A stretch of DNA of 45,555 bases, from the UHGV virus genome UHGV-2198558, one strand, 5' to 3'. A model generated the notes under the pieces. That model worked only from the letters and a program-made list of their open reading frames with translations. It was not told the DNA's origin and did not search any database. Position numbers and translations under genes: made by a program. Below, piece by piece: positions 1,539 to 44,248 of this stretch (positions are counted from its first letter, which is position 1; every line of letters begins with the position of its first letter). The DNA is from a virus.

Positions 1539-1594
1539 ATTTTCTCCCTCCAGTATAGATATAATTTGCGAACGGGTAAAATACCCCATAATCT

Positions 1595-1623: not shown

Positions 1624-1719
1624 TACACGATCCGCACTTTTTCAGAAAAAAGTAGGTGTTTTGTTTCCTTTCATTTTGTAAAGAGTTACTTTTTTCTCTT
1701 GACAAATCATGATAAGATG

Positions 1720-1768
1720 CGAAAAACTCTGTGCAAGCATCGGACATCAGTGTCCATTTGCACAGAGT
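1720..1768 (-). terminator. Rho-independent terminator after the HExxH-protein gene
   Basis: Perfect 11-bp inverted repeat actctgtgcaa / ttgcacagagt (1726-1736 / 1758-1768), followed on the minus strand by a U-run (plus-strand gaaaaa 1721-1726). Confidence 0.6.
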
Positions 1769-1801
1769 CTTATTCTATGATTTACTTTCTCTACGGACTT
1801 A

Positions 1802-5131: not shown

Positions 5132-5291
5132 TACAAAGCTCTCCTTCAAGAATGTATGGGATAGTCAATCCTCAAAACGAACAAATATTCTTATTGAAAT
5201 CTGTGCAACCCTACAAAGTTTATCAAAGACTTTTCAACGCTGAAAACGTTAGAAATGCGAAATTTGGCGTAGGCATTGCATCTTTGATCAC

Positions 5292-5563: not shown

Positions 5564-7492
5564 ATGACTATATATCTTGATAGAGGACCGTTTCTCACCA
5601 TTCCCGACAAGCTGCATTCGGGGCAGTACAGAGTGATCCGCAACCCCGACTGGCACGGAGTACTGCCGGAGATCGTGTCCTTCACCGATTTTCTCAAATG
5701 GAATTACACACTGGAGTATGGTCAGTATATCCGCAAATTGCACTACTACCACCAGCTTCCGCTGCCGTGGGTCGTTCCACAGGATGCCGAGATAGAAACT
5801 GTCATCATCGAGGAAGGCAGATATGACCGCATTGATCACAATTCCTTTGATATGTATGTGATATGCGATGTCGTGTTCGAGATGAACGGCTGCCGGCAGT
5901 GCCAGAAGTATATCGTACACGGCTTTTACTGCTCTTACGGCGGTTCAGACTTTCTGTGCGGTGCGGAGCTCTACAATGGTCAGTTTATCCGGCTGAACAA
6001 TCCCTTAGATGAGTTTCTGGTTCCCATCCTTTCAAAGAAAGAATTTGCAAGCATTGCACAAGCAATCATCGACCACTACTATTCATACAAATCGAATTAT
6101 CCCTGCCGCATCAATACTGCTTCAATTGCAAAGGCAATGGGTCACGATATAAAGTATGCCAGACTGTCAAAAAACGGAAATGTCAAGTCCAAGCTGATCC
6201 TGGACAAGCGGGATACGACCGTCTATGATAAGGAATACAAAGCTGTCAAAATGCGGATCGACAGTCCTACGATCCTTGTGGACGAGTCATTGGAGGAGGA
6301 TGAAGCGCAGAACGCCATTATTCATGAGTGCGTTCACGCTTACCTTCACAACCTCTTCTATGAGCTGCAGAGCTACTATCGGAAAATGGTCGGCAGGAAG
6401 ATGCCGGAGTTCAATGACTACTTCTATTCCAAGACGCAGCGTAGCTGCCTGAAATGGATGGAAACACAGGCAAATGCCATCCCACGCTTTATTCAGATGC
6501 CGGAGGAGCAGGCATCCGATGTCATCCTGAACTTCTTCGAGCGACTCCCCGGAGAGCCTGACTGGGACGATTACAGAGAACTGATCGACCTTGTGAAATG
6601 GAAGTTCGGAGTATCCCGCAATGCTGCGAAGAAGCGTATCATTGAGCTTGGCTGGCCGGAGGTGCGCGGTGTGTATGTCTACAACACCACAGGATATGTT
6701 GAGGACTACGATGTAGAGCTAAGATTCCCGCAGGACTATACCTATACACTGTCATTCCGCCAAATCTCTGATGTGTTTGCATCCTGCGAGACCTTCGCAG
6801 AGCTTGTCCGTTCCAAGAAGTTCATCTATCTGGACGGTCATGTTGTGATCAACAGCGACAGGTATATCCGCAAGGAACACGGCTTAGCTATGGGCTTGAC
6901 AGAGTATGCTAGACACCACATGGCAGAGTGCTGTCTGGATTTCAAGCGTATCTACGCAGAATTCGACTACAGCTATACCTATGGCGAGCTACACAAGGAT
7001 GACCTGACCGAGATCACGGCCGAAAACCGTTCGTTCAGCGATGAACAGCGAAAGAAGATCCGCATGGCAATGTATGAGATCACAGAAGAAAACTATAAAC
7101 TGACCGTTCCTTCAGATGTCAACGAATTCGGCAAGGCGGTGCGTTTCCATATGGAGAGATGCGGTCTCACCTCGGATCTGGTTGCAGACCGCAGCGGCAT
7201 GGGTGTGAACACTGTCAATAAGATGCGCAGTGGCAAGAGAGTGAAGCTCGAAACAGTGCTAGCTTTTTGTGTCGCTTTGGAGCTTGAAGAGTCGTTCCGC
7301 ATTGACCTTATGCAGAAAGCGAAGGTTGATTATGATATGAGCAATCCTGCCCATCGGCTCTATGTCACGATCTTTGAGCTGATGCCGAAGGCAAATGTCT
7401 TTCAGATCAACGATCTGCTGAAGGCAGAAGGCTTTACGCCGTGGACGAGGGACTGCGAGGAAAAGAAGCGGTATGCTAAGAAAAGTATGTAA
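5564..7492 (+). CDS. Large regulatory protein: HExxH (ImmA/IrrE-like) metallopeptidase motif plus C-terminal XRE-type HTH
   Basis: 642 aa; CAGGAGGG RBS; IIHECVHAYLH motif mid-protein; C-terminal HTH (GLTSDLVADRSGMGVNTVNKMRSGKR). Confidence 0.7.
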   Translation: MTIYLDRGPFLTIPDKLHSGQYRVIRNPDWHGVLPEIVSFTDFLKWNYTLEYGQYIRKLHYYHQLPLPWVVPQDAEIETVIIEEGRYDRIDHNSFDMYVICDVVFEMNGCRQCQKYIVHGFYCSYGGSDFLCGAELYNGQFIRLNNPLDEFLVPILSKKEFASIAQAIIDHYYSYKSNYPCRINTASIAKAMGHDIKYARLSKNGNVKSKLILDKRDTTVYDKEYKAVKMRIDSPTILVDESLEEDEAQNAIIHECVHAYLHNLFYELQSYYRKMVGRKMPEFNDYFYSKTQRSCLKWMETQANAIPRFIQMPEEQASDVILNFFERLPGEPDWDDYRELIDLVKWKFGVSRNAAKKRIIELGWPEVRGVYVYNTTGYVEDYDVELRFPQDYTYTLSFRQISDVFASCETFAELVRSKKFIYLDGHVVINSDRYIRKEHGLAMGLTEYARHHMAECCLDFKRIYAEFDYSYTYGELHKDDLTEITAENRSFSDEQRKKIRMAMYEITEENYKLTVPSDVNEFGKAVRFHMERCGLTSDLVADRSGMGVNTVNKMRSGKRVKLETVLAFCVALELEESFRIDLMQKAKVDYDMSNPAHRLYVTIFELMPKANVFQINDLLKAEGFTPWTRDCEEKKRYAKKSM

Positions 7493-7915: not shown

Positions 7916-8140
7916 GCCGCGGCATTCGGAGCATGGCAATTAGATCATTACATTTGTTAGTCAGGGCGCGCACTGGCGGACAGATGCTCATAGCGGAAAT
8001 AACATCACGATTTGGAGTCTGTATAGACTGACAAGGTGTATTTCGTGTGGACATCGTCCCCTGCGTGCCTTTTTCTCTGGGACAGCAGTCGCGTTATGGG
8101 CATCTGCCGCTTGGTGTGTTCCTTGCAGAAAGGAACGATT

Positions 8141-8863
8141 ATGGAAAACGCAAATGTTCAGAATGCTGCCGCTATCACCGATAAGACCACCCTCGGCGAA
8201 CTGCTTGCAATGCTTGACCTCGCTGATAAGGCAGGCAAGATGCCGACACCGAGAGAACTGTTTGAGACTGCCGGTTCGCCGATAGCCGATATGAATGGCT
8301 GCACTCTCTTCAGCAACGGCTTCGCCATCTATCAGAATGTCACTGGGCGCACTGTTGTCTGGCTGCCGTACTGCAAGAGCTTCACCTATTACTTCGGCAA
8401 GCTCCGTGATTCCGAGAAAGACACGCTGACAGAGACCTATGAGCTGCCGGATGGATTTCTGGAAACACAGCCGTGGGTGATCGCAGTAACACTGATCGGC
8501 GACCATCGTGTGGAGGCAAACAGCATGAACCGCACCGGCAGCCGCAAGGATACCACAGATTATGACAGCGCCGATAACGGCGATAAAGACGGTGATGCAG
8601 AGGAGGCTTTGGCAGATCCGTATCGCAGGGCATTCAACTGGTATGACGGACGCATGGGCGAGAATCCGCAGGATGCCGTGGAGCGCAGAGAGACACGCGA
8701 GGAGATGCTTGCAGACATGACGGACAAGCAGCGTGAAGCCTTTATTATGTACTTCAGGGATGGTATGACGCAGGAAGAGATTGCTTCATATATAGGGGTA
8801 AGCCGTGATTCCATAAATGACAGGCTTGAAGGTGCTTTGAAAAAAGCAAAAAAATATTTTTAG
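8141..8863 (+). CDS. Sigma-70 region-4-like HTH protein (putative phage transcription regulator)
   Basis: C-terminus LTDKQREAFIMYFRDGMTQEEIASYIGVSRDSINDRLEGALKKAKK resembles sigma region 4; no region 2 recognised. Start at ATG 8141 after GAAAGGAA. Confidence 0.65.
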   Translation: MENANVQNAAAITDKTTLGELLAMLDLADKAGKMPTPRELFETAGSPIADMNGCTLFSNGFAIYQNVTGRTVVWLPYCKSFTYYFGKLRDSEKDTLTETYELPDGFLETQPWVIAVTLIGDHRVEANSMNRTGSRKDTTDYDSADNGDKDGDAEEALADPYRRAFNWYDGRMGENPQDAVERRETREEMLADMTDKQREAFIMYFRDGMTQEEIASYIGVSRDSINDRLEGALKKAKKYF

Positions 8864-32339: not shown

Positions 32340-32416
32340 ACGCATAACGTGCCCGTTTTGAAACGATGAAACGAAAACTCCCGAATCTGCGTTACTTTGA
32401 TTTCGCAAAGATACAC

Positions 32417-32599
32417 TCATTCAGATTTCTTGTCTCCGCCAAGCTCGATCTTTCCGTGCTTTTCCTCATATTTTTCAATGCAGTCACGGATCAGGATCAG
32501 AACCTGACTGTTGGCAGAACGACCTTCGTAATCGGCAACAACGTGAAGTTTATCAAGCATCTCCTGTTCGATACGGATGGATACACTTTTAATAGCCAT
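32417..32599 (-). CDS. Ribbon-helix-helix (CopG/Arc-like) DNA-binding protein
   Basis: MAIKSVSIRIEQEMLDKL... beta-strand then helix pattern; AAGGA RBS; the only minus-strand gene in the 35-kb plus-strand block. Confidence 0.55.
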   Translation of the reverse strand: MAIKSVSIRIEQEMLDKLHVVADYEGRSANSQVLILIRDCIEKYEEKHGKIELGGDKKSE

Positions 32600-32712
32600 A
32601 AAACAACTTCCTTTCAGATATATTATGACTTTATTTTAGACCTGTTTTGTGGTATAATGTTTGAAATGGATATAAAGTGTATCTAAAATATATCTATAAG
32701 AAGTTGTACGAT

Positions 32713-33051
32713 ATGAAAATAGCAATTATTGGCTCACGGGGACTTCATGTGAATGACCTTGAACGGTATCTTCCGGAAGATGTCACAGAAATCGTCAGCG
32801 GAGGAGCAAGGGGCATTGATTCGGATGCGCGGGCATACGCACAGGCACACGGCATTCCGCTGAAGGAGTTTCTGCCGGATTATGAACGCTTCGGCAGGAG
32901 CGCCCCGCTGAAACGGAATCTTGAGATCATCGCTTATGCCGATGTGGTGCTTGCATTCTGGGACGGACAGTCACGCGGCACGAAATATGTGATAGACCAT
33001 TGCCGGGAACAGCACGTTCCGGTCAGGGTTTTCGCACCGAGAAAGAAATAG
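32713..33051 (+). CDS. SLOG/DprA-like Rossmann-fold protein
   Basis: IAIIGSRG...VSGGARGIDSDARAYA...ADVVLAFWDGQSRGT pattern; start uncertain (ATG 32713 or GTG 32677). Confidence 0.5.
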   Translation: MKIAIIGSRGLHVNDLERYLPEDVTEIVSGGARGIDSDARAYAQAHGIPLKEFLPDYERFGRSAPLKRNLEIIAYADVVLAFWDGQSRGTKYVIDHCREQHVPVRVFAPRKK

Positions 33052-33186
33052 TAATAAAGAAGCCATGCAGCAAATTGTGAACATTCTGATACTAAATCAG
33101 ATGTTCTGCCGCAGGGCTTCTTTCTATTCTGTACTATGCACAATCTAAAGGGCAGACACGCCCCGTACATTCTCCGTTTTACAGTC

Positions 33187-33215
33187 TTGCATTCCGGGGC
33201 AAAAGACGGTAATAT
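33187..33215 (+). promoter_or_regulatory. Cassette promoter 1
   Basis: TTGCAT, 17-nt spacer, TAATAT, followed by GTGAC leader. Confidence 0.5.
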
Positions 33216-33283
33216 GTGACTACGAAAACGCCGCAGCCCAACGCACAAGGCTGAGGGGCGGCAGTAAAAACGGAGGTAATCAT

Positions 33284-34192
33284 ATGGAAATCAAGTTCAA
33301 TATTGAAAAGAGCCAGCGCAAGGCACTGGCACAGAAAATCGGCGAGCTGACAGGAGCAGAGGTCAAGTACCTCGGTGTACCGGGCTGCAGATACCAGATC
33401 GACTTCTTCACCCTGGACAAAAACGCAGTCCTCAGTTTCAGCGACCGCATCGACACAGATATCGTGGAGAAGGTACTGAATGGGCTTGCAGAGGCAGGAT
33501 ATGAAAGCAAAACAGTAGCACCGCCGGAAGAAACGGATGCTTCGGCTGAATCAGAGCCGGATATCCCTGACGAACCGAGCAGCGGATTTCCGCTGCTCGC
33601 AAGCATCAGCTTCCCGATTGCAGAGCACACGGTGCAGAGCCTTACAAACCTTATCTGCATGATCCACTCCCGCGGCGCACTTCTCAGCAAGGCGACCGGC
33701 GGACAGTTCTTCGCAGACAAGAGCCTCGCCGATGCGATCCTCGATGACAAGACCTTCCGCAGCATCCACGAGCTTATCGCCTACATCAGAGTATGGGAGG
33801 AAACGAATCCCGAACTGAAGGGCATCCGTTTCGCCGATGACAAGCTGATCTTTGACGGCTTCGGTGCAGCGCAGGATGCCGAAACGGTGCAGACCTTCAC
33901 CAAGCTCGCCACAGCCATGAACAGGATGGCGATCACGCAGAAACGTGTGCAGGCAAAGGATGTCGATGACAGCAACGAAAAGTACGCACTCCGCATCTGG
34001 CTGATCCGCCTTGGGCTGAACGGCGCAGACTGCAAGGTTGACCGCAAGCGCCTCATGGCTCCGCTTTCCGGACACACCGCATTCCGCAACGATGCGGAGC
34101 GTGTGCGCTGGGAGGCAAAGCAAAAGGCAAAGCGTGATGCTGCCAGAACCGAACTGACCGAGGAGGATGAAAACGATGCAGTTTCCGAATGA
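33284..34192 (+). CDS. Hypothetical protein sharing a C-terminal module with the amidoligase
   Basis: CGGAGG RBS; C-terminus KYALRIWLIRLGLNGADCKVDRKRLMAPLSGHTAFRN aligns with the amidoligase C-terminus. Confidence 0.6.
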   Translation: MEIKFNIEKSQRKALAQKIGELTGAEVKYLGVPGCRYQIDFFTLDKNAVLSFSDRIDTDIVEKVLNGLAEAGYESKTVAPPEETDASAESEPDIPDEPSSGFPLLASISFPIAEHTVQSLTNLICMIHSRGALLSKATGGQFFADKSLADAILDDKTFRSIHELIAYIRVWEETNPELKGIRFADDKLIFDGFGAAQDAETVQTFTKLATAMNRMAITQKRVQAKDVDDSNEKYALRIWLIRLGLNGADCKVDRKRLMAPLSGHTAFRNDAERVRWEAKQKAKRDAARTELTEEDENDAVSE

Positions 34193-34424
34193 AAGACAGC
34201 TCAGAGCCTTGCGGGAGCGTTATCCCGCAGGCACCCGCATCCGACTGAAGCATATGGATGACCCTTATGCACCCGTACCGCCCGGCACGGTCGGCGAGGT
34301 TCAGATGGTTGATGACGGCGGCAACATACACATGGTCTGGGAGAATGGCAGAACGCTCTCCCTTATAGACGGTGTCGATGATTTCCAGGTCATTTCTGAC
34401 CGCAATGGGGGCTCCGGAAAATAA
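34176..34424 (+). CDS. Small conserved protein (DUF4314-like by recall)
   Basis: GAGGAGG RBS 9 nt before ATG 34176; GTVGEVQMVDDGGNIHMVWENGRTLSLIDGVDDF. Confidence 0.45.
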   Translation: MQFPNERQLRALRERYPAGTRIRLKHMDDPYAPVPPGTVGEVQMVDDGGNIHMVWENGRTLSLIDGVDDFQVISDRNGGSGK

Positions 34425-34537
34425 GAGATCCTATTCCATTGTATCCGAGTATACCATAGAATTTCAAGTATATCAAGTGTACACATACACCAGATATGAG
34501 CAATGTATTTTCCTCGATATTCTGTGGTTTTAGCGGC

Positions 34538-34566
34538 TTGCTATATCCTCCGAAAGACGGTAATAT
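34538..34566 (+). promoter_or_regulatory. Cassette promoter 2
   Basis: TTGCTA, 17-nt spacer, TAATAT, then conserved leader GTGACACAACGGAAGGGCAAACGCCCACCGAAAA. Confidence 0.55.
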
Positions 34567-34621
34567 GTGACACAACGGAAGGGCAAACGCCCACCGAAAA
34601 ACCGAATCGGAGGATACCAAA

Positions 34622-35566
34622 ATGACTGAGAAAACCGCACAGCAGATCAACAGAATGAAGGAGCAGACCATCGGGGTTGAGATCGAGATGAACAACATCA
34701 CCCGCAAGGCTGCCGCAAAGCTCGCCGCCGACTTCTTCGGCACGAACCGCTACGAGGACACGGCCTGCCGCAACGGCTACGAAACCTACAGTGCTTGGGA
34801 CGCACAGGGACGCGAGTGGAAATTCCAGAAGGACGTCAGCATCGCAGGCCCCGACAGCGAAAAGTGCGAACTGGTCACACCGATCCTGCACTACGCAGAC
34901 ATCGAAACCCTGCAGGAGCTTGTGAGAAGGCTCAGAAAGGCAGGAGCGCGCAGTGATTACACGCGGGGATGTGGAGTCCACTGCCACATTGGAGCCCAGG
35001 GACACACACCGCAGAGCCTCAGAAACCTCGCAAACCTTATGGCAAGCCACGAAACCCTGATCGCCGAGGCAATCAGAGTAGACCAGAGCAGAATGCACCG
35101 CTACTGCAGAACAGTTGACCCGAGATTCCTTGAACAGCTCAACCGCAAAAAGCCCACCACGATGGCACAGCTTGCGGACATCTGGTACGGCGCACAGGGC
35201 TGCGAATACGGCAGAACCCACCACTACAACGACAGCCGCTATCACATGCTCAACCTCCACGCTACCTTCACCAAAGGCACGGTCGAGTTCAGACTTTTCC
35301 AGTTCGCACCGCCTTCCAACGGCAAGCAGAACGGGCTCCACGCAGGCAAGCTCAAGAGCTACATTCAGCTCTGCCTCGCAATGAGCCAGATGGCAAAGGA
35401 CCTGCGGAGCGCCAGCCCCAAGGAACAGCAGAAGGAAAACAAAAAGTTCGCCATGCGGACTTGGCTGATGAGAATGGGATTCATCGGGGATGAATTCGCA
35501 ACGGCGAGAGAGGTCCTCACTGAGAACCTTACGGGCGACAACAGCTTCCGCTTCGGCAGATCTTAA
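34622..35566 (+). CDS. Amidoligase_2-family enzyme (putative peptide/metabolite ligase)
   Basis: N-terminal GVEIE motif; 314 aa; immediately upstream of an AIG2-like cyclotransferase gene, the conserved neighbourhood I recall for this family in Firmicutes phages. Confidence 0.65.
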   Translation: MTEKTAQQINRMKEQTIGVEIEMNNITRKAAAKLAADFFGTNRYEDTACRNGYETYSAWDAQGREWKFQKDVSIAGPDSEKCELVTPILHYADIETLQELVRRLRKAGARSDYTRGCGVHCHIGAQGHTPQSLRNLANLMASHETLIAEAIRVDQSRMHRYCRTVDPRFLEQLNRKKPTTMAQLADIWYGAQGCEYGRTHHYNDSRYHMLNLHATFTKGTVEFRLFQFAPPSNGKQNGLHAGKLKSYIQLCLAMSQMAKDLRSASPKEQQKENKKFAMRTWLMRMGFIGDEFATAREVLTENLTGDNSFRFGRS

Positions 35567-35831
35567 AGGCCTGCCCTTCGGGGCGGAAGAACAAGCGGAA
35601 CGGCACGGCGGCGCACACAGCCGCCACGGTCTCGGCTCTCGCCTCGGTCGGTGCTTCTGCTTCGCAGAGGTTGCCACTGGCAACCCGCACCCCCGTGTGT
35701 GGCGGAAAGGGTATCCTCCGAATCGGTATCCCATCTCAGTCAACCGCGCCACACAGCGCAAATGTAGGCAAGGCATAAAATGCACAACATACGGCACAGA
35801 ATCGCCCTCGATGATCTGTTCATTTACCCGC

Positions 35832-35860
35832 TTGATAATGCCGCCGAAATGAGTTAACAT
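35832..35860 (+). promoter_or_regulatory. Cassette promoter 3 (diverged leader)
   Basis: TTGATA, 17-nt spacer, TAACAT. Confidence 0.45.
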
Positions 35861-35899
35861 AGCACTACCGCAAGGAAAAAACGCAAAGGAGAACATAGC

Positions 35900-36367
35900 A
35901 TGAACAAGAAAAAATACTACATAGCCTACGGCAGCAACCTCAACATCCGCCAGATGCGATTCCGCTGCTCAGGCGCAAAGCCCATCGGCATTTCCGCGAT
36001 TCCTGACTACGAACTGCTCTTCAAGGGCAGCAAGACGGGAGCGTACCTCACCATCGAGCCGAAGGACGGCGGGCTTGTTCCGGTCGCCGTGTGGGAAGTG
36101 ACAGCCGACGATGAGAAGCACCTCGACATCTACGAGGGCTACCCGAACTTCTACTACAAGAAGGAAGTCCGCCTGCCAATCAGGCTGGCAAACGGCAAGA
36201 CCAAAAAGGTCACGGCATTTGTCTACATCATGCACGAGGAGCGTGAGATTGCGATCCCGTCAATGACCTACATCCGCACCTGCGAGGAAGGCTACCGCAA
36301 CTTCGGCTTCGACACCAAGTTCCTTGATGCCGCCTACGAGATCAGCGCAAAGGAGGTACAGCGATGA
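35900..36367 (+). CDS. AIG2-like / gamma-glutamyl cyclotransferase family protein
   Basis: YIAYGSNLNIRQM N-terminal motif; AAAGGAG RBS; 155 aa. Confidence 0.75.
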   Translation: MNKKKYYIAYGSNLNIRQMRFRCSGAKPIGISAIPDYELLFKGSKTGAYLTIEPKDGGLVPVAVWEVTADDEKHLDIYEGYPNFYYKKEVRLPIRLANGKTKKVTAFVYIMHEEREIAIPSMTYIRTCEEGYRNFGFDTKFLDAAYEISAKEVQR

Positions 36368-36564
36368 AAGACCGCAACAAAGAGCCGCACATCTGCCCGA
36401 AATGCGGGCAGGCGTACACCGCCCGACCAGCTCTTTCCCGCGTGGATAACAGCCCAATCTGCCCCGACTGCGGAACGCGTGAAGCGCTTGAAAGCATCGG
36501 CGTCGGACGCGAGGAACAGGACAAGATTCTCGGCATCATCCACGAGAAGTACGAAGGCGAATAA
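36364..36564 (+). CDS. Small zinc-ribbon protein
   Basis: ATGA overlap with the AIG2 stop; CPKCG...CPDCG. Confidence 0.5.
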   Translation: MKDRNKEPHICPKCGQAYTARPALSRVDNSPICPDCGTREALESIGVGREEQDKILGIIHEKYEGE

Positions 36565-36572
36565 GTCGGCAC

Positions 36573-36594
36573 AAAGGGGCGTTACAGCCCCTTT
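36573..36594 (+). terminator. Hairpin, possible weak terminator
   Basis: aaaggggc / gccccttt stem with gttaca loop; weak U-tract. Confidence 0.35.
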
Positions 36595-36635
36595 CCGCAT
36601 TCTCAGGGATAACTTATCCCCCACTTTCCGGGCGT

Positions 36636-36655
36636 GACACGGCGCGTTCTGGCGC
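36636..36655. repeat. Cassette boundary repeat (short copy)
   Basis: gacacggcgcgttctggcgc shares the ACACGGCGCG core with copies at 38314, 39198 and 40524. Confidence 0.45.
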
Positions 36656-36721
36656 AAACTATGTACCTGTTCAGCTTGCTGAAAACGGCGATTCTTCTAC
36701 GATTTATTTTGCACATAGGCG

Positions 36722-36750
36722 TGGACTTTTCAGGCAAAAGGCGGTAGTAT
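36722..36750 (+). promoter_or_regulatory. Cassette promoter 4
   Basis: TGGACT, 17-nt spacer, TAGTAT, then conserved leader. Confidence 0.5.
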
Positions 36751-36807
36751 GTGACACAACGGAAGGGCAGACAGCCCACCGGAATTCATAACATGGAGGA
36801 TACGAAC

Positions 36808-37278
36808 ATGAACGACAGCTACTTTGAGGAGATGACCTTCCAGTGCGCCGCCTATGAACGCGCCAAAAAGGAGCGCGCCGAGCGCAAGGCTCAGATTGCC
36901 GAAGCCCACGGCTACGACAGCCCGGAGGTGGACGCTTGGTACGCTGAGGAGAAGGCGGCAGGTCCTTACCCCTACAGCGGCAATGAGATGAAAGCCTACT
37001 GGGTGTACAAGATGCGCCGCGAGAACGACGGTGACGAGTTCGAGATGAGCGATTACTGCTGGGACAAGGAATTCCACGATTTCATCGAAACGCTCCGCAA
37101 GCTAGGCATCACCGAGTTCACGATCACCAATCAGAGCACGGCGCTGATGGAGAACATCTACGGATTTATTGCAGAAGGCTGCACGATGGTCGGAACGCAC
37201 ACCATCACCAAGAAGAGCCTGCGCTGGGGCGAGGAAGAATACGAAACGGCACAGGGCATCCTTTTCAAGGTGAACTGA
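36808..37278 (+). CDS. Hypothetical protein
   Basis: GGAGGA RBS 7 nt before ATG 36808; 156 aa. Confidence 0.6.
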   Translation: MNDSYFEEMTFQCAAYERAKKERAERKAQIAEAHGYDSPEVDAWYAEEKAAGPYPYSGNEMKAYWVYKMRRENDGDEFEMSDYCWDKEFHDFIETLRKLGITEFTITNQSTALMENIYGFIAEGCTMVGTHTITKKSLRWGEEEYETAQGILFKVN

Positions 37279-37286
37279 TATCGACA

Positions 37287-37322
37287 GGAGCAGGGCTTCG
37301 GCTCTGCTCCCCTCCCCCTTTT
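37287..37322 (+). terminator. Rho-independent-like terminator
   Basis: 10-bp stem ggagcagggc / gctctgctcc with ttcg tetraloop, then a C/T-rich tract ending TTTT. Confidence 0.5.
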
Positions 37323-37395
37323 CCTCATGTGTAAATCCTACAATACGAAAGGCTGAGATCGGCGATTCTTCTACGTTTTATTTTGCACATAGGCG

Positions 37396-37424
37396 TGGAC
37401 TTATCAGCAGGATCATGGTAATAT
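37396..37424 (+). promoter_or_regulatory. Cassette promoter 5
   Basis: TGGACT, 17-nt spacer, TAATAT, then conserved leader. Confidence 0.5.
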
Positions 37425-37479
37425 GTGACACAACGGAAGGGCAGAACGCCTACCGAAAAACGAAACGGAGGATAACACC

Positions 37480-37800
37480 ATGAACCCCTACACACTGAGA
37501 AAGAGCCTGAACCTGATTGATGCCAACACGGCGATCACCCGCGAGGACTTCGAGAGCCTCTTCTGCAAGACTGCAGAGCGTGTCACCTTTACCTTCAACG
37601 GTTGGGACGGCAAGAGCTATGATGGCGAGAGGCGCAGCGGTTACGTTTACCGCACCATCATCGAGGGCTACGAGAATGTGAGATTCGTTAAGGTCGGCAA
37701 GGGACTGCATTACATCGATGAGGACAGCAGCATTACCGAGAAGGCTACGGGCATCGCCCACAAGGAAGCAGAGTGGCTGGTCGATGTGAAGAGAGCATAA
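37480..37800 (+). CDS. Hypothetical protein
   Basis: CGGAGGA RBS; 106 aa. Confidence 0.6.
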   Translation: MNPYTLRKSLNLIDANTAITREDFESLFCKTAERVTFTFNGWDGKSYDGERRSGYVYRTIIEGYENVRFVKVGKGLHYIDEDSSITEKATGIAHKEAEWLVDVKRA

Positions 37801-37866
37801 GCAAAACAGCGGAGCCCTTCCTGCGGGGAGGGCTTACCGCAGAAAAAAACATGGAGGTTTACGAAC

Positions 37867-38250
37867 ATGAGTACGAATTCAAGAGTCGGAATTCTGCATC
37901 AGGACGGCGTCACGGAGACAATCTACTGCCATTGGGACGGCTACCCCGAACACCAGATGCCCATCCTCACCGAGCATTATAACACCGCCGAGAAGGTCAA
38001 GGCACTGCTTGCCCTTGGAGACATCAGCATCCTCGGCGAGCGCCTTGCTCCCGATGCGGATGAGCCGCACAGCTTTGAAAAGCCTGCCGATGGTGTGACG
38101 GTTGCTTACCACCGCGACCGCAAAGAGCCGATGCAGCCTGCGGTCACCCACAAGAGCGTTGTTTCCCTGATGAGCGATGACTGGGGCATTCCGTATTACT
38201 ACCTTTTCGATGAGGAAAAAGGAGCATGGCTTCCGCCGACCGAGGACTGA
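37867..38250 (+). CDS. Hypothetical protein
   Basis: GGAGG RBS 9 nt before ATG; 127 aa; no own promoter, co-transcribed with 37480. Confidence 0.6.
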   Translation: MSTNSRVGILHQDGVTETIYCHWDGYPEHQMPILTEHYNTAEKVKALLALGDISILGERLAPDADEPHSFEKPADGVTVAYHRDRKEPMQPAVTHKSVVSLMSDDWGIPYYYLFDEEKGAWLPPTED

Positions 38251-38313
38251 TAGGTTCAGCCCTGCGGGGCTGACTTGCCCCACGTTGTCCTTTGTGCGGT
38301 TTTCCTGCGATAA

Positions 38314-38366
38314 GCTTGCCCCTGCGGAAAGCCGCCTCACACGGCGCGTTTGTGTGCCTCCTGTGG
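38314..38366. repeat. Cassette boundary repeat
   Basis: cttgcccctgcggaaagccgcctcacacggcgcgtttgtgtgcctcctgtggg. Confidence 0.5.
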
Positions 38367-38430
38367 GCTTGGTGCTATGTATACAACAAATGGCGCAGAT
38401 ACGCCGATTTTGTTCTGAACATTTAGCCGC

Positions 38431-38459
38431 TTGCTATTCCGGAAAGATCATGGTAATAT
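38431..38459 (+). promoter_or_regulatory. Cassette promoter 6
   Basis: TTGCTA, 17-nt spacer, TAATAT, then conserved leader. Confidence 0.5.
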
Positions 38460-38515
38460 GCTACACAACGGAAGGGCAAACGCCCACCGAATACAAAACA
38501 CGGAGGTAAACCACC

Positions 38516-38898
38516 ATGACAAAGAAGGAAATGAAAGCCGCAGTTGCCAAGCTGAAGATGCTGCAGAACGGCAAAGCCGCCCTTGAGGGAATGACCGAAG
38601 CGGACTGCCTTGAGCTTTTCGGGATCAGCAGAGCGCAGGCACTTGCAAACACAAACGCCGCCCTTGCCAAAACCGAGCAGGAGATTTNNNNNNNNNNNNN
38701 NNNNNNNNNNNNGAGCATCCGCTGACAGGCATCGACAAACAGCTCTTCGAGATCGCAGCAAAGCACCTGATCACGGTGCAGGAGCGCGGAGACCTTGAAG
38801 CCCGCCACTGCGACAGCGAGGACTTCATCGAGGGTTCGGTCTGGGGGCTGGAAGCCGCCCTCAAGGATGCCTACGAGGCAGGACGCAAGAGCAAGTAA
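38516..38898 (+). CDS. Hypothetical protein interrupted by an assembly gap
   Basis: CGGAGGT RBS and ATG 38516; coding resumes after the N-run and ends at TAA 38896-38898. Frame across the gap cannot be determined. Confidence 0.4.
38688..38712. other. Assembly gap (25 N)
   Basis: Run of n characters in the sequence. Confidence 0.99.
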
Positions 38899-38960
38899 CC
38901 AAACGGAACAGCGCAGCCCTTCCGCAGGGAGGGGCTGCCAATCCCGAAGGAGGAAAGAAC

Positions 38961-39140
38961 ATGGATACATACGCACAGCTTGAAATGCTGACCGCAGTCA
39001 TCGCAAACCTGTCGGCCACGGGAACATGGACGGAGCGAGAAGTGATGGAAACGCTGCTGGATGTCTTTGAACCGAAGGAGCTTGAACAGCTCGGCTACGG
39101 CGACTGCGTGAACGCATACTTGGAAGAGTACGGCGGATAG
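38961..39140 (+). CDS. Small acidic protein (59 aa), below the ORF-track length cutoff
   Basis: AAGGAGGAAA RBS 7 nt before ATG 38961; MDTYAQLEMLTAVIANLS...EEYGG, stop TAG 39138-39140. Confidence 0.5.
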   Translation: MDTYAQLEMLTAVIANLSATGTWTEREVMETLLDVFEPKELEQLGYGDCVNAYLEEYGG

Positions 39141-39197
39141 CGACGACACACGCACCACGTTGCCTCGTGTGGGGCGGTGCCGGGGAGATGCGTACAG

Positions 39198-39240
39198 CTT
39201 GCCCCTGCGAAAAGCCGCCTTACACGGCGCGTTCTGGCGC
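39198..39240. repeat. Cassette boundary repeat
   Basis: cttgcccctgcgaaaagccgccttacacggcgcgttctggcgc. Confidence 0.5.
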
Positions 39241-39310
39241 GTCCTATACGATGTACAATTCCGCCCGACTTCCCGCCTCATGTTTGTCACATTTATTTTG
39301 CAGACAGACG

Positions 39311-39339
39311 TGGACTTTTCTGCGAAAAGACGGTAATAT
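39311..39339 (+). promoter_or_regulatory. Cassette promoter 7
   Basis: TGGACT, 17-nt spacer, TAATAT. Confidence 0.5.
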
Positions 39340-39386
39340 GTGACTACCGCAAGAGAAGCGGAATCAATCAAAAGGAGCGAATCTAC

Positions 39387-39740
39387 ATGAAAATTCTGGT
39401 ATGCGAACCCGGCAAGCACCCCTACGTCAAGGACATCGAGTCGGGGCTGGAGAACCTTCAGCACGAGGTGGACGGACTGATTCAGGCCCTCTACCCATTT
39501 TCCGAAGAGGCGGCTGTTGTGTGCAACGAAGAAGGGCTGTTCCGCGATGACCTCGAATGGAACAGAACGGTCGATCCCTATGGTCCGATCAAGGGAACAT
39601 TCTTCATTTGTGGGCTCGGCTTTGAAGATTTTACAGGACTGACCGATGAACAGATCGAAAAGTACACTAAGCTCTTCTGGCCTCCTGAGCTTTTCATCCC
39701 GACACCGAACGGCATGGTGGTGCTTCACATTGTGGAATGA
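39387..39740 (+). CDS. DUF3846-like protein
   Basis: AAAGGAG RBS; MKILVCEPGKHPYVKDIE...YPF...VVCNEEG...GTFFICG pattern, recalled from mobile-element proteins of Firmicutes. Confidence 0.55.
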   Translation: MKILVCEPGKHPYVKDIESGLENLQHEVDGLIQALYPFSEEAAVVCNEEGLFRDDLEWNRTVDPYGPIKGTFFICGLGFEDFTGLTDEQIEKYTKLFWPPELFIPTPNGMVVLHIVE

Positions 39741-39843
39741 CCGCAACAGGGGCAGGGCTTCGGCTCTGCTCCGCACTATTCCCCGGTCATAATGTACACA
39801 ACTGAACGCCGAAAAATGCAGAAATGATCGTGATTACTCACGC

Positions 39844-39872
39844 TTGATAATGTAGGCAAGAAGAGTTATACT
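39844..39872 (+). promoter_or_regulatory. Cassette promoter 8
   Basis: TTGATA, 17-nt spacer, TATACT; leader hairpin variant gggcggaaagccc. Confidence 0.5.
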
Positions 39873-39929
39873 GTGTACAACGGAAGGGCGGAAAGCCCAG
39901 CCGAAAACGAAAATGCGGAGGTACACACC

Positions 39930-40109
39930 ATGAAAACGAAGCAGGAACTGATCGAGAAGGCAAAGAAAGAGTGGGGCGAGACTTGGAACGAGGGCATGAT
40001 CGAGTACGATGCCGAGTACAACGAGTACATCGTCTGGGTAGGCAAGCCGGACATCTACAAAGCCTTCTTCGATGCCGACACCCTCAGATGCATTGGCACG
40101 AAGTGCTGA
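39930..40109 (+). CDS. Small hypothetical protein (59 aa)
   Basis: GCGGAGGT RBS; followed by a ccgccc-ttcg-gggcgg hairpin. Confidence 0.5.
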   Translation: MKTKQELIEKAKKEWGETWNEGMIEYDAEYNEYIVWVGKPDIYKAFFDADTLRCIGTKC

Positions 40110-40164
40110 GAACAACCGCCGCCCTTCGGGGCGGCACAACACCAATACTAAGGAGGACATTTAC

Positions 40165-40437
40165 ATGAGCGAGAACACAGAAAAGCGCGATGCAGCCGAA
40201 GAACTAGAACTTACCGATGCACAGGCAGACCGCAACGATGACATCTACGAGGCAGCTTTTGAATTCTGCAAGGTGCTGACCGAGAACCCCGACCTCGAAT
40301 GGGACATGGCGTTCCTCGGTGAGATCGCCGACCTTGCCGCTGGCATCATGACCGAGCAGGGACACAAGGTGCGGTTCCCCAGTGTGGTCACCGAGCAGGA
40401 CGGCACGCAGTACATTGAAGAATACTACGGCGGCTGA
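40165..40437 (+). CDS. Small highly acidic protein (90 aa)
   Basis: AAGGAGG RBS before ATG 40165; roughly 23 Asp/Glu against about 6 basic residues. Confidence 0.55.
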   Translation: MSENTEKRDAAEELELTDAQADRNDDIYEAAFEFCKVLTENPDLEWDMAFLGEIADLAAGIMTEQGHKVRFPSVVTEQDGTQYIEEYYGG

Positions 40438-40523
40438 TCGGCAAAACGGAGCAGTCCTTCTGCGGAGGGGCTGTTCCACGCCACGTTCGCTTGTGTGGGG
40501 GGCTTACGGCTTTCTGCGGATAT

Positions 40524-40575
40524 CTTGCCCCGCGATAAAAGCCGCCCACACGGCGCATTTGTGTGCCTCCTGTGG
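40524..40575. repeat. Cassette boundary repeat
   Basis: cttgccccgcgataaaagccgcccacacggcgcatttgtgtgcctcctgtgg. Confidence 0.5.
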
Positions 40576-40638
40576 CAAGGCATAATATGTACAACAACCG
40601 ACAAAAAATCGCCTTGCACATTCTGGTAGTTTAGCCGC

Positions 40639-40667
40639 TTGATATATCTGCCGAAAAGAGTTATAGT
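40639..40667 (+). promoter_or_regulatory. Cassette promoter 9
   Basis: TTGATA, 17-nt spacer, TATAGT; leader variant with cgggaaaccg hairpin. Confidence 0.5.
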
Positions 40668-40723
40668 GTGTACAACGGAACGGGAAACCGAGCCGAAAAC
40701 TACGAAAGAACGAGGTAAACACT

Positions 40724-40960
40724 ATGTGGCACGAAGGCACGATTCTGGCACCGACCAAGGAAGGCAAGACGGTGGTTCACTACTGGGCAAAGGTCTACGA
40801 CGAGGGCAGCCAGTACGGCATCAACGAGGGCAGAATCAGTAAACTGACACTCAAGGAGAATGGCAAGGTCATCTACAACTATGACAGAGGCGAGGATGTA
40901 CCCGAGCAGAACGAGGCTGCGGAGATTGCCCTTGCGATCCTGATGTACGAGTACAAGTAA
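40724..40960 (+). CDS. Small hypothetical protein (78 aa)
   Basis: ORF directly downstream of cassette promoter 9 and its leader; weak SD (ACGAGG). Confidence 0.5.
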   Translation: MWHEGTILAPTKEGKTVVHYWAKVYDEGSQYGINEGRISKLTLKENGKVIYNYDRGEDVPEQNEAAEIALAILMYEYK

Positions 40961-41048
40961 ATAGAACGGTCGGTAGGCGGTAGCATTAAGCCGCCCATCC
41001 AAACCAAGACGGACACACATATAAATTCAAGGTGGATATACATAGGAG

Positions 41049-41077
41049 AGGCTTGCAGCACGCAGGCCTTTTCTTTA
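41049..41077 (+). terminator. Rho-independent terminator closing the cassette array
   Basis: 8-bp stem aggcttgc / gcaggcct (one G-U), 5-nt loop, then TTTTCTTT. Confidence 0.65.
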
Positions 41078-41108
41078 TGCAGATTTTTTGAGAAAAGGAG
41101 TGATGCGG

Positions 41109-41582
41109 ATGGCTCAGAGAGGCAGAAAACCGACGCCGACAGCAATCAAGGAACTGGAAGGCAATCCCGGAAAACGACCGCTGAATGATGCAGAGCCGAA
41201 GCCGGAACGCAAGGCACCGCCCTGTCCGAAGTGGCTGGAGCCCGAAGCAAAAAAGGAATGGCGCAGGCTGTCAAAGCAACTGGAGCAGATTGGTGTGCTG
41301 ACCGAGGTCGATCAGGCGGCATTCGCATCCTACTGTCAGGCATACGCACGATGGAAAGAAGCCGAGGAATTCATGACCCAGCACGGCACGATCGTAAAAA
41401 CAAAATCAGGTTACTGGCAGCAGGTTCCGCAGGTATCCATTGCGCAAACTTATCTGAAGATCATGAACAAGATCGCAGAGCAGTTTGGCCTGACCCCGGC
41501 GGCAAGAAGCCGTATCACTGCCGGCGCAGATATGAAAAACGCTGCCGTTGACGATATGGATGAACTTCTCGGAGGTGGCTGA
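41109..41582 (+). CDS. terS: Terminase small subunit (P27-family-like)
   Basis: MAQRGRKPTPTAIKELEGNPGKRPLN N-terminus; AAGGAG RBS 8 nt before ATG 41109; stop overlaps the terL start. Confidence 0.8.
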   Translation: MAQRGRKPTPTAIKELEGNPGKRPLNDAEPKPERKAPPCPKWLEPEAKKEWRRLSKQLEQIGVLTEVDQAAFASYCQAYARWKEAEEFMTQHGTIVKTKSGYWQQVPQVSIAQTYLKIMNKIAEQFGLTPAARSRITAGADMKNAAVDDMDELLGGG

Positions 41583-44248
41583 TGGCGAGAACGGCAAAGG
41601 CAAGAGAAAGACCTGCCAACTATCCGAAACTGAAGGATTATAAACCGACACGCTTTATGCTGCCGGAATCGCACTACGATGCGGCAAAGGCTGACCGAGC
41701 TGTGCGGTTCATCGAGAATCTCTGCCATACCAAAGGACGCTGGGCAGGCAAACCGTTCTGGCTGCTTCCGTGGCAGGAACAGATCATCCGGGATATTTTC
41801 GGCATCGTCAAAGAGGACGATATGCGGCAATTTCGTACCGCCTATGTCGAAATTCCAAAGAAAAATGGGAAGCAGCTTGCACTGGATACACCGATCCCGA
41901 CTCCGCAGGGATTCACCAATATGGGAGATCTGAAGGTCGGAGATACAGTATTCGATGAAAACGGCATTCCGTGCCATGTGGTTGCGAAAAGTCCTGTGGA
42001 TGATACAGAGCAAGCCTACAAGCTGACCTTCAAGGACGGCACCTCGATCATTGCCGGGGAAAGGCATCTGTGGAACTGTCAGTATATTTACGGCAAACGC
42101 AAGGATGTTCTCTGGACGACCGGCGAGATCTATCGCAGGACAACGGAATACAGACAGCGTTTTTCCGACAGACCACAGACAAAGCGGGATTCCCTTATCC
42201 GAATTCCGGTGTGCGGTGTCCTTCAGACAGAAGCGGCAGTTTTACCGATTGATCCGTATCTGTACGGCTACTGGCTCGGAAACGGTAATGTGACCATGCC
42301 GGAGATCACTGTTCGGACGGAGGATGTCGAGGATATCATCTCGAATATTCCGTATAAGGTACACAACCGTTATCCGCAGAAATGCGGCGGCAGTGAGATC
42401 ATAAAGTACAATGAACTGAAAGCAGTACTACTTGACAGCTTCCGTGAAAAGAAGATCCGACCAGAATATCTGAGGGCATCCGCAGAGCAGAGATGGGCAT
42501 TACTGCAAGGGCTTATGGATTCGGACGGCTGTATCGGCGAACGCAAAGGGCAAAGTGTGTATGTCACAACGCTGCGAGAGCTGGCGCTTTCCGTCAGAGA
42601 ACTGCTGTGGTCACTCGGCATCAAAAATGCAGTGAAATGTGAGCCTTCTACACGGCATGGGTGGCCGACCGGCGAGATTTTGTATATCGTCCGTTTTACA
42701 ACCTTTGATGGCCAACCGACATCAAGGCTTAAACGCAAAAATACACGCACACAGGCGCGGTTAAAGGAAACTCGCTCCTGTTTTCATTATCTGCTGGATA
42801 TTCAACCTGTAAATCATCCTGTAAAAATGCAGTGCATTCAGGTGGACAGTCCGAGTCACCAATATCTCGCAGGACCGTCATTTGTGCCTACGCACAACAG
42901 TGAGCTTGCAGCGGCAATTGCACTGTATCTGCTCTACGCCGACAACGAGCCGTCTGCTGAGGTCTACGGCGCTGCTGCTGATCGTGGGCAGGCATCCATT
43001 GTATTCGATGTCGCCAAAAGAATGGTTGAGATGACACCGGCACTTCTGAAACGCTCAAAAATCATGGCGGCGACAAAGCGTCTGGTGAATTACAGTAATG
43101 TTGGCTTTTATCAGGTGCTTTCAGCGGAAGTCGGTACAAAGCACGGATTGAATGTATCCGGTCTGGTTTTGGATGAACTTCATGCCCAACCGAACCGCAG
43201 CCTTGTGGATGTTCTCACAAAGGGTTCCGGTGATGCCCGTACTCAGCCGCTGTACTTCCTGATCACAACCGCCGGAACGGATCGCAACAGCATCTGCTAC
43301 GAGTATCACACGAAAGCAAAAGATATTCTGGACGGCAGGCGCATTGATCCGTCCTTCTATCCTGTGATCTACGGCTTGAACGATGATGACGACTGGAACG
43401 CAGAGGAGTCATGGTATAAGGCAAATCCCTCGCTCGGATACACTATCGCCATCGACCGAGTCCGCGATGCTCACCGGGAAGCCCTTACAAATCCCGCTGA
43501 AGAAAATGTATTCCGTCAGCTGAGGCTTGACCAGTGGGTAGGCAGTGCGGTGGCATGGATTCCGGAGCATATCTACGACAGGGGCAATCTTCCGATCGAC
43601 CTCGAAAAGCTCCGGGGACGGGAGTGCTACGCAGGTCTTGACCTATCCAGCACATCGGATATCACGGCATTTGTGCTGGTGTTCCCTCCGCTGCATGACG
43701 GCGAGAAATACATCGTTGTCCCGCACTTCTGGCTGCCGAGAGAAACGCTCGATTTGCGAGTACGGCGAGACCATGTTCCCTACGATGTATGGGAGCGCAT
43801 GGGATTATTTCATATCACCGAGGGCAATGTGGTCGATTACAATTTCGTGCGGAAAACGATCAACGAGCTGCACACGATGTACAACATCAAGGAAATTGCT
43901 GCCGACCGCTGGAATGCCACACAGCTTATCACAGACCTTGAGGGAGACGGATTTACCGTTGTTCCGATGGGTATGGGCTTCAAGGATATGTCCCCGCCGA
44001 TGAAGGAACTGTACAAGCTCATACTCGAGGGGCAGTTTATCCACGGCGGCAACCCTGTACTCCGCTGGATGGCAGGAAATGTGGTCGCTGAAATTGATGC
44101 AGCGGAGAACATCAAACCAAGTAAAAAGAAAAGTACAGAAAAGATTGACGGTATCGTGGCATGGATCATGGCACTTGACCGCTGCATCCGCCACGAAATG
44201 CAGGGCAGTGTCTATGACGAACCCGGCCACGATCTTGTGGTCATCTGA
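41582..44248 (+). CDS. terL: Terminase large subunit interrupted by an intein
   Basis: 888 aa against a typical size near 550; ATPase P-loop region YVEIPKKNGK / SELAAAIALYLLYAD split by a 342-aa insertion; C-terminal nuclease-domain-like sequence. Confidence 0.85.
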   Translation: MARTAKARERPANYPKLKDYKPTRFMLPESHYDAAKADRAVRFIENLCHTKGRWAGKPFWLLPWQEQIIRDIFGIVKEDDMRQFRTAYVEIPKKNGKQLALDTPIPTPQGFTNMGDLKVGDTVFDENGIPCHVVAKSPVDDTEQAYKLTFKDGTSIIAGERHLWNCQYIYGKRKDVLWTTGEIYRRTTEYRQRFSDRPQTKRDSLIRIPVCGVLQTEAAVLPIDPYLYGYWLGNGNVTMPEITVRTEDVEDIISNIPYKVHNRYPQKCGGSEIIKYNELKAVLLDSFREKKIRPEYLRASAEQRWALLQGLMDSDGCIGERKGQSVYVTTLRELALSVRELLWSLGIKNAVKCEPSTRHGWPTGEILYIVRFTTFDGQPTSRLKRKNTRTQARLKETRSCFHYLLDIQPVNHPVKMQCIQVDSPSHQYLAGPSFVPTHNSELAAAIALYLLYADNEPSAEVYGAAADRGQASIVFDVAKRMVEMTPALLKRSKIMAATKRLVNYSNVGFYQVLSAEVGTKHGLNVSGLVLDELHAQPNRSLVDVLTKGSGDARTQPLYFLITTAGTDRNSICYEYHTKAKDILDGRRIDPSFYPVIYGLNDDDDWNAEESWYKANPSLGYTIAIDRVRDAHREALTNPAEENVFRQLRLDQWVGSAVAWIPEHIYDRGNLPIDLEKLRGRECYAGLDLSSTSDITAFVLVFPPLHDGEKYIVVPHFWLPRETLDLRVRRDHVPYDVWERMGLFHITEGNVVDYNFVRKTINELHTMYNIKEIAADRWNATQLITDLEGDGFTVVPMGMGFKDMSPPMKELYKLILEGQFIHGGNPVLRWMAGNVVAEIDAAENIKPSKKKSTEKIDGIVAWIMALDRCIRHEMQGSVYDEPGHDLVVI
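41873..42898 (+). mobile_element. Intein (342 aa) in TerL, non-canonical Gln at position 1, with LAGLIDADG-like motifs
   Basis: Block A-like QLALDTPIPT, block B-like GERHLW, block F-like MQCIQVD, block G FVPTHN followed by Ser; internal LYGYWLGNGN and LLQGLMDSDGCI. Confidence 0.6.

Follow-up and report, generated by a model that had tools for sequence, protein, structure and literature searches.

A repeated intergenic palindrome resembling PeSL cassettes in the accessory gene block of a temperate Clostridia phage

Promoter-early stem-loop (PeSL) cassettes are known from T4-type phages, where crossovers have been located within the stem-loop or adjoining it (Arbiol et al. 2010, PMC2839356; Comeau et al. 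2014, PMC4122927). Here we describe a 105–125 nt imperfect palindrome that recurs between small accessory genes of the virus genome UHGV-2198558, whose 45,555 nucleotides are referred to throughout as the window, and we compare it with PeSL cassettes and other described systems. As in the PeSL case, a repeated intergenic stem-loop is followed by a sigma-70-like promoter and a Shine-Dalgarno (SD) sequence around small accessory open reading frames (ORFs) of unknown function, conservation extends over about 100 bp, and recombination between copies yields indels with crossovers in or by the stem-loop. In contrast to PeSL cassettes, which are hosted by T4-like myoviruses in their hyperplastic regions, the element lies in a temperate Clostridia phage encoding a CI-like repressor, a family A DNA polymerase, a D5-type primase and a P27-type small terminase subunit (TerS), and it is therefore regarded as an analogue rather than a member of the PeSL group. 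The palindrome also has conserved arms and apex, whereas PeSL is a short polyG/polyC hairpin; palindrome and promoter occur independently of each other here, and one subtype carries an anti-SD sequence matching its own unit. This resemblance to PeSL is drawn from sequence.

Pairing between the two ends of a transcript has been described for Staphylococcus aureus icaR, in which a UCCCCUG motif in the 3'UTR (3' untranslated region) pairs with the SD region of the 5'UTR (PMC3868564), and for Bacillus subtilis hbs, with a 14-bp 3'UTR-5'UTR interaction (PMC5737220). One subtype of the element, B, likewise carries 3' of the stop codon a C-rich anti-SD that is complementary over 12–18 bp to the SD region of its own unit; unlike in icaR and hbs, the anti-SD is here part of an apical loop, that of a repeated palindrome within a mobile phage cassette family, and the complementarity is read from the DNA. 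The attC sites of integrons (about 60–140 bp) share with the element an imperfect palindrome at cassette 3' ends, a fixed orientation and junctions inside the palindrome. In contrast to attC, the element ends, GTTCGCC (5') and GTACAAC (3'), fit neither RYYYAAC (R'') nor GTTRRRY (R'), no IntI-type integrase domain was found among the window ORFs scanned, and the cassettes have promoters, whereas attC cassettes are promoterless. Correia elements of Neisseria and bcr1 of the Bacillus cereus group are intergenic repeats of ~100–150 bp with inverted-repeat arms, similar to miniature inverted-repeat transposable elements (MITEs). They resemble our element in these arms and in their capacity for co-transcription and long-hairpin folding, but differ from it in that it keeps strictly to one orientation and position and no consistent target-site duplication is seen with it. 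RNase III processing hairpins sit between early genes of T7 and of the B. subtilis phage SP82. Here, too, long imperfect hairpins are repeated between the genes of a co-directional early or accessory block; however, the primary sequence is conserved beyond what RNase III recognition needs, and the hairpins are predicted ones.

The reading we prefer, with about an even chance of being right, is that the element is the terminator-side half of a PeSL-like regulatory cassette and is probably transcribed as a 3'UTR hairpin. The order of such a cassette would be the palindrome, a ATGTACAAC box, a sigma-70-type promoter, and a 5'UTR stem-loop plus SD. The palindrome would be read through as the 3'UTR of the upstream unit and fold into a long hairpin which, by analogy with the T4-type PeSL stem-loop, would serve as a transcription barrier or 3'-end protector insulating the next promoter; in the B subtype, the apical loop would offer anti-SD pairing with the 5'UTR and ribosome-binding site (RBS) of its own unit. 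Anti-defence and host-takeover genes turn over fastest in the accessory blocks that adjoin the packaging genes of temperate phages, and the element family provides a sequence-defined cassette boundary in gut and rumen Clostridia phages, with direct examples of cassette loss by recombination at it, that could help to delimit cassettes in metagenomes and to mine them.

Occurrence, anatomy and non-coding nature of the palindrome

The preliminary description of the window had reported a motif of 40–50 bp in four intergenic regions, always shortly upstream of a promoter. Its positions were confirmed, the core ACACGGCGCG being exact at 36637, 38339 and 39222 and having one mismatch at 40548, always on the plus strand and between genes, and the spacing to the promoters also holds, with the palindrome ending ~58–65 nt ahead of the −35 hexamers at 36722, 38431, 39311 and 40639. 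The length, however, had to be revised: the element starts ~45 nt further upstream, at (C)TTGC.CCACGTT, and what had been seen were its apex and 3' arm, so that the observation was real but under-described. A fifth, diverged copy (B) adds to the four reported, and the supposed shorter copy at 36636 (C) is a half element made of apex plus 3' arm (Table 1). By our own arithmetic about 0.09 exact 10-mer matches would be expected in 2 x 45.5 kb; with one mismatch allowed, the core count is by itself not significant (4 found vs 3.5 expected), whereas the 21-mer AAAGCCGCCNNACACGGCGCR is (2 found vs 0.03 expected). The repeat search returned a 65-nt family at 74–75% identity and a 31-nt family that takes in the short copy, and a profile built from relatives recovered the window copies with E = 1e-41, 9e-28 and 3e-24. 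With its length taken into account, the motif lies far beyond chance (profile E-values from 1e-24 to 1e-41).

Related phages were represented by 28 viral contigs found by the core pattern and by ~140 further loci fetched via two neighbouring proteins; individual loci are given below by their L numbers. The element was found at cassette junctions in many Clostridia phage loci, and the iterated profile gave 418 matches at 106 fetched loci, with 2–8 per locus and many loci overlapping on the same contigs. When an 18-base core pattern was compared with genome assemblies, most matches were chance ones in GC-rich genomes, and the genuine copies were confined to L111 and L144, metagenome-assembled genomes (MAGs) of Clostridia from sheep rumen and rabbit gut. 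No close relative of the window was found by megablast among deposited phage genomes.

The two arms, each of ~28 bp, are mutually inverted copies in the manner of terminal inverted repeats, with the consensus (C)TTGCGCCACGTT-CGCC-(C)GTGTGGGG-GCTT for the 5' arm and AAGC-CGCCCACAC-GGCG-CGTT..GTG.GC for the 3' arm, in which the core pairs with CGCCYGTGT of the 5' arm. A single long hairpin is predicted for nearly all copies, with arm-arm duplexes of −25 to −46 kcal/mol, and because of the palindrome symmetry the profile matches one and the same site on both strands at distant loci. Among the window copies, H has a differing 3' continuation (GTTCTGGCGCGTCC) without the CCTCC tail, F has an inner stem GCGGTTTTCC / GGAAAGCCGC, and B has the arms GTGTGTGGCGG / CCGCGCCACACAGCGC and represents a subtype that is abundant in relatives. 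At L191 (4184–7308), each of four successive intergenic regions contains a palindrome with the common apex CCTCCGCAAAGTTA, and the regions 6361–6616 and 6962–7308 are near-identical over >200 nt, promoter included, which indicates a recent duplication of the entire regulatory cassette. Rfam covariance models gave 0 matches at the gathering threshold in the whole window, and at E <= 1 the sole match in 33000–41200 was a chance-level PhotoRC-I (39880–39903). The complement of the K/F/H apex, sought elsewhere in the window, occurred at chance level. An inversion of the apex between the K and B types was considered and rejected (direct 7.3 vs reverse-complement 6.9).

Translation of the element produces spurious shared peptides, as had been pointed out in the preliminary description; LAPAKSRLTRRV is indeed copy H translated in one frame. 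The reading of the copies as 3' ends of homologous genes that have diverged, or as a small conserved ORF, has practically no probability left, even though one core-anchored frame is free of stop codons in most copies. In the alignment of the copies the reading frames are broken in every case by 1-nt indels beside the core, further indels of variable length fall in the apex and centre, and the element has neither a start codon nor an RBS. The genes ahead of it come from different, unrelated families and terminate before it begins, and 3' of the core H-type and K-type copies have wholly different sequences. An origin as gene 3' ends, which the preliminary description had given as its refuting condition, or as coding sequence is thus refuted by the indel pattern together with the unrelated upstream genes.

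Cassette order, separable modules and recombination at the core

In gene-oriented loci, the element is co-directional with the genes at 335 of 335 sites. Its place is behind the final gene of a transcription unit, about 60 nt ahead of the next sigma-70-type promoter; the distance from its end to the next start codon is near-constant (103–126 nt) and the gap from the upstream stop codon is variable (−10 to +109 nt). More than 20 different gene-family pairs flank it, and three different promoter types accompany it. Within 35.6–40.7 kb the series of palindrome, −35 and −10 hexamers at 17-nt spacing, conserved 5'UTR and GGAGG occurs five times; the promoters at 35832 and 40639 come from prediction and the other three were read off the letters.

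The box that follows the palindrome resembles the −10/+1 region of a promoter (TATAGTGTGTACAACGG), and since it is also present at 39792, where the palindrome is absent, we assign it to the promoter module; the empty site of L174 is further evidence for this assignment. Such ATGTACA(C)AAC boxes may be regulator sites or vestigial promoters. A second promoter formed by the 3' arm and a CATAAT box was rejected, as no consistent −35 is seen across copies, and so was a minus-strand small RNA, for which the terminator-like match at 40554–40541 is weak and no minus-strand promoter was seen. From about the predicted transcription start, the conserved 5'UTR forms a ACAACGGAAGGGC-AAAC-GCCCACCG stem-loop followed by an A-rich spacer and GGAGG; this 5'-end stem-loop looks like a 5' mRNA stabiliser common to the cassettes.

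The palindrome and the promoter can each occur without the other, as separate modules. L186 shares with L183 the Zn-ribbon gene, the promoter and the DUF3846 gene but has no palindrome, and in L239 the palindrome lies between Zn-ribbon and DUF3846 genes without a promoter and runs directly into the RBS, so that it must be transcribed there. These loci bear on the idea, related to the regulator-binding site of the preliminary description, that the palindrome is an operator-like DNA site at which a dimer of a phage or host protein would bind the two inverted arms and control the promoter ~60 bp downstream. The fixed spacing to the −35 hexamer would suit such a site, as would the conserved arm sequence with dyad symmetry and no covariation, which is what protein recognition would give, and the phage encodes several DNA-binding proteins (CI-like repressor, M78 plus helix-turn-helix (HTH), Arc-like, sigma-70 region 4). 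We nonetheless consider an operator quite unlikely: the element occurs without a promoter in L239 and the same promoter without the element in L186, three different promoter types accompany it, its asymmetric apex and tail keep a fixed orientation, and a span of >100 bp with a variable centre of 30–45 nt is unlike known operators.

Recombination at the core is observed directly. In L006 and L010, the left part of copy H is joined to the right part of copy K, and the DUF3846 gene and the next two genes are absent; the crossover lies inside ACACGGCGC, the 9-nt identity with the copy K core, in L006 and inside AAAAGCCGCC in L010, so that these are two independent H x K events, both within the 22-nt core. 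Their crossover points differ, which is what homology-driven exchange would produce. Further rearranged copies include those of L008, L026 and L028, which are 5'-truncated and fused to a different hairpin, and that of L002, which is fused into coding sequence. The copies share about 70–75% identity over >100 bp with identical cores of 9–10 nt, and would in our preferred reading also be substrates for relaxed homologous recombination, which would delete and reshuffle cassettes. The earlier suggestion of a recombination boundary therefore describes the outcome correctly, given these crossovers and the >20 gene pairs, while nothing marks a dedicated recombination site.

Presence or absence of the palindrome at the Zn-ribbon–DUF3846 junction distinguishes L183, L190 and L188 from L185 and L186, and the insert of roughly 120 bp in L183 relative to L186 is flanked on both sides by the 5-bp repeat GGCGC. 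A systematic search for empty sites with 268 flank queries returned two kinds of site only, the second being a replacement without a flanking repeat, which is too little to support transposition. A non-autonomous, MITE-like mobile element that spread recently and is largely neutral would account for the arms resembling terminal inverted repeats, the many copies per genome, the truncated copies, a pairing decay that is uncompensated as under neutral drift, and the one insertion-like polymorphism with a 5-bp direct repeat. It would not account for the single orientation of all 335 sites, nor for a position that is always at the unit end ahead of a promoter and at near-constant distance from the next start codon. 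The 268 queries gave one candidate target-site duplication and another empty site without any, no partner transposase is known, and the subtypes are stably tied to particular genes across phages whose proteins are 57–90% identical; we regard this explanation as very unlikely.

The same filled and empty pair, with GGCGC on both sides of the insert, also bears on the possibility that the palindrome is mainly a DNA-level recombination site for cassette exchange, either a dedicated attC-like site for a phage or host enzyme that acts on hairpin or cruciform DNA, or a conserved linker maintained for promoting shuffling. This possibility, which has a small but appreciable chance, draws on the conserved sequence without stem covariation, the equal stability of both strands, the two independent crossovers within the 22-nt core, the >20 different flanking gene pairs, and a size and 3'-of-cassette position that resemble attC. 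However, the sequence shows neither RYYYAAC nor GTTRRRY core sites, the ORFs scanned yielded no domain of an integrase or other recombinase, the cassettes bring promoters of their own, the crossovers differ in position as homology-driven exchange predicts, the second empty site is a replacement without flanking repeat, and the anti-SD covariation of the B type requires an explanation at the RNA level. There is a slim chance that the hairpin-forming palindromes serve as dedicated sites of cassette exchange and so as the phage equivalent of attC in integrons, with the apex sequences, anti-SD included, travelling as the dosage control of the cassette; if so, promoter-equipped accessory or anti-defence cassettes would be excised, swapped and captured between co-infecting phages.

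Anti-Shine-Dalgarno complementarity of the B subtype and tests for RNA structure

For the reading of the element as a 3'UTR hairpin, the B subtype carries the strongest evidence, and it is for this subtype alone that we infer an RNA function with some force. The apex of copy B holds an anti-SD sequence complementary at 17/18 positions to the 5'UTR/RBS segment of the amidoligase gene, downstream of which it lies, with a predicted −32.4 kcal/mol against this RBS and −23.4 against the next-best RBS, and cofolding of copy B with the UTR gains about 20 kcal/mol. Apex and UTR co-vary across phages (lineage-level permutation test, p = 0.007): L235 has GATTCGGAGGATAC with GTATCCTCCGAATC, L191 has TAACTTTGCGGAGGA with TCCTCCGCAAAGTTA, and L185 has GGAGGATACCAC with GTGGTATCCTCC plus a second helix, ACCGAAAGGG / CCCTTTCGGT. 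The inter-helix spacers of L185 are non-homologous and of unequal length, which speaks against an origin by simple inverted duplication of the DNA. Overall, B-type palindromes pair with the 5'UTR of their own unit at −35.2 kcal/mol as compared with −31.7 for other units (z = −5.3, 0/3000 permutations). These complementarities and their covariation are compatible with pairing in cis as well as in trans, and by analogy with icaR and hbs such pairing may affect translation or cleavage by RNase III/Y. The B subtype offers a testable case in which a 3' element of a phage co-varies with its own unit's RBS; if control of this kind is true, 3'UTR-5'UTR regulation, so far described for few Firmicutes chromosomal genes, would extend to mobile phage cassettes.

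A separate anti-SD-like sequence, ATCCTCCGAAAG (34546–34557), lies in the −35/−10 spacer of the amidoligase promoter, with the RBS CGGAGGATAC ~50 nt downstream of it; only read-through from upstream would transcribe it.

The remaining copies present a different picture: the tail of K and F (UGUGCCUCCU) is anti-SD-like in a generic way only, and H and C lack one. RNAalifold on a MAFFT alignment recovered only the near-invariant GTGTG/CACAC stem, without covariation. When the arms were aligned blind to structure, the central helix was 81.5% paired, with 68.5% paired in register vs 37–57% when slid, and a T-tract, as in a terminator, follows the outer stem in 25/72 non-redundant copies.

Several results weigh against the preferred reading. 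The central-helix covariation score is 0.070 vs 0.069 in shuffles; cognate arms pair hardly better than non-cognate ones (−40.0 vs −39.05 kcal/mol, z = −2.1), the cognate partner being best in 1/75; and the two strands are equally stable (−33.07 vs −33.03 kcal/mol), so that the stems give no pointer to RNA over DNA. The window copies F, H and K have no U-tract after the hairpin, the primary sequence is conserved beyond the needs of a terminator, and half copies without a 5' arm persist, namely C in the window and those of L008, L026 and L028. In addition, K/F/H-type palindromes pair only marginally with their own 5'UTR (z = −1.7), and in L191 the anti-SD apex is found in all four palindromes and is fully complementary only to the amidoligase UTR. 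For F, H and K these results do not demonstrate a selected RNA structure; what is conserved is the palindromic sequence. The use of G.U pairs as a sign of a plus-strand RNA was discarded as wrong, given that the reverse strand folds equally well with a similar number of G.U pairs.

The preliminary suggestion that the element is part of a small RNA is accordingly plausible and borne out only by the B subtype, whereas for F, H and K the stems lack covariation and the pairing with the UTR is marginal. No separate promoter is evident upstream of the element, which in many relatives begins at the stop codon, and any RNA would therefore be a 3'UTR or read-through product.

Genomic setting and feature coordinates

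The window derives from a temperate phage of gut or rumen Clostridia and includes the accessory-gene region that carries the element. Apart from the repressor and the terminase genes (Table 1), it encodes an M78+HTH protein, a DUF2800 nuclease, a family A DNA polymerase, an SNF2 helicase, a D5/NrS-1-type primase, MetK, NrdD and two DNA methylases. The stretch of 33.1–41.1 kb is a run of small co-directional genes, among them those for amidoligase, GGACT, a Zn-ribbon protein, DUF7698, a PHROG 1987 protein, DUF3846, DUF7678 and several orphans, which form units that each open with a sigma-70-type promoter and the conserved 5'UTR.

Table 1. Positions of the element copies, associated signals and landmark genes in the window
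Feature	Position	Strand	Details
Copy K, full palindrome	40470..40580	+	nhmmer E = 1.2e-41; RNAfold −44.2 kcal/mol, one long hairpin; 5' arm GCCACGTTCGCTTGTGTGGGGGGC, apex CTGCGGATATCTTGCCCCGCG, 3' arm AAAGCCGCCCACACGGCGCATTTGTGTGCC, tail CCTCCTGTGG
Copy K core ACACGGCGCA	40548..40557	+	3'-arm partner of CGC.YGTGT in the 5' arm
Copy H, full palindrome	39146..39250	+	nhmmer E = 2.6e-24; RNAfold −47.6 kcal/mol
Copy H core AAAGCCGCCTTACACGGCGCG	39211..39231	+	
Copy F, full palindrome	38266..38372	+	nhmmer E = 9.3e-28; RNAfold −33.0 kcal/mol
Copy C, half element without 5' arm	about 36606..36670	+	apex-like GGGATAACTTATCCC plus 3' arm GACACGGCGCGTTCTGGCGC
Copy B, diverged full palindrome 3' of amidoligase gene	35675..35796	+	nhmmer E = 7.5e-6
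Anti-SD apex of copy B, GGTATCCTCCGAATCGGT	35710..35727	+	CUCCGAAUC within the 9-nt apical loop
Amidoligase 5'UTR/RBS segment ACCGAATCGGAGGATACC	34601..34618	+	complementary to copy B apex
Sigma-70-type promoter after copy K	40639-40667	+	TTGATA-17-TATAGT
Equivalent promoters	35832-35860, 36722-36750, 38431-38459, 39311-39339	+	
ATGTACAAC box	40587..40595	+	just 3' of the palindrome
Further ATGTACAAC / ATGTACA(C)AAC boxes	near 35780, 36661, 38377, 39251, 39792		~45 nt upstream of each −35
Conserved 5'UTR	34571-34600, 36755-36784, 37429-37458, 38464-38493, 39876-39905, 40672-40700		
Short GC-rich hairpins	37806-37840, 38907-38938, 40116-40136, 35570-35588, 36575-36592, 40975-40996		
CI-like HTH + S24 repressor	4259-5149	−	
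P27-type small terminase, then large terminase	41.1-44.2 kb		

A GC-rich hairpin also lies 3' of most genes of this block. These hairpins are short, follow nearly all of the small genes, even between genes under one promoter, and have no T-tract; they are probably 3' stabilisers or weak attenuators rather than efficient terminators. The gene that starts at 38516 contains 25 N (38689–38713), an assembly gap.

Beyond the block, a 275-aa protein with a sigma-70 region 4 domain is encoded at 8036–8863, a sigma-like factor of the phage itself, to which some of the repeated promoters could respond. At 32340–33100, an AT-rich island within the GC-rich gene block contains a divergent pair, an Arc-like repressor (32417–32599, minus strand) and a SLOG/YspA-like protein (32713–33051, plus strand), and looks like an acquired moron. 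The low-GC left end of the window (78–2899, minus strand; 38–43% GC) encodes a 503-aa GHKL-type ATPase (HATPase_c_3) and a 365-aa protein without a Pfam match, which may be a defence-type pair at the prophage edge. Finally, the large terminase (41582–44248) has 888 aa, and the LAGLIDADG_3 domain (residues 303–369) that precedes its ATPase domain match (442–580) suggests an intein or an inserted homing endonuclease.

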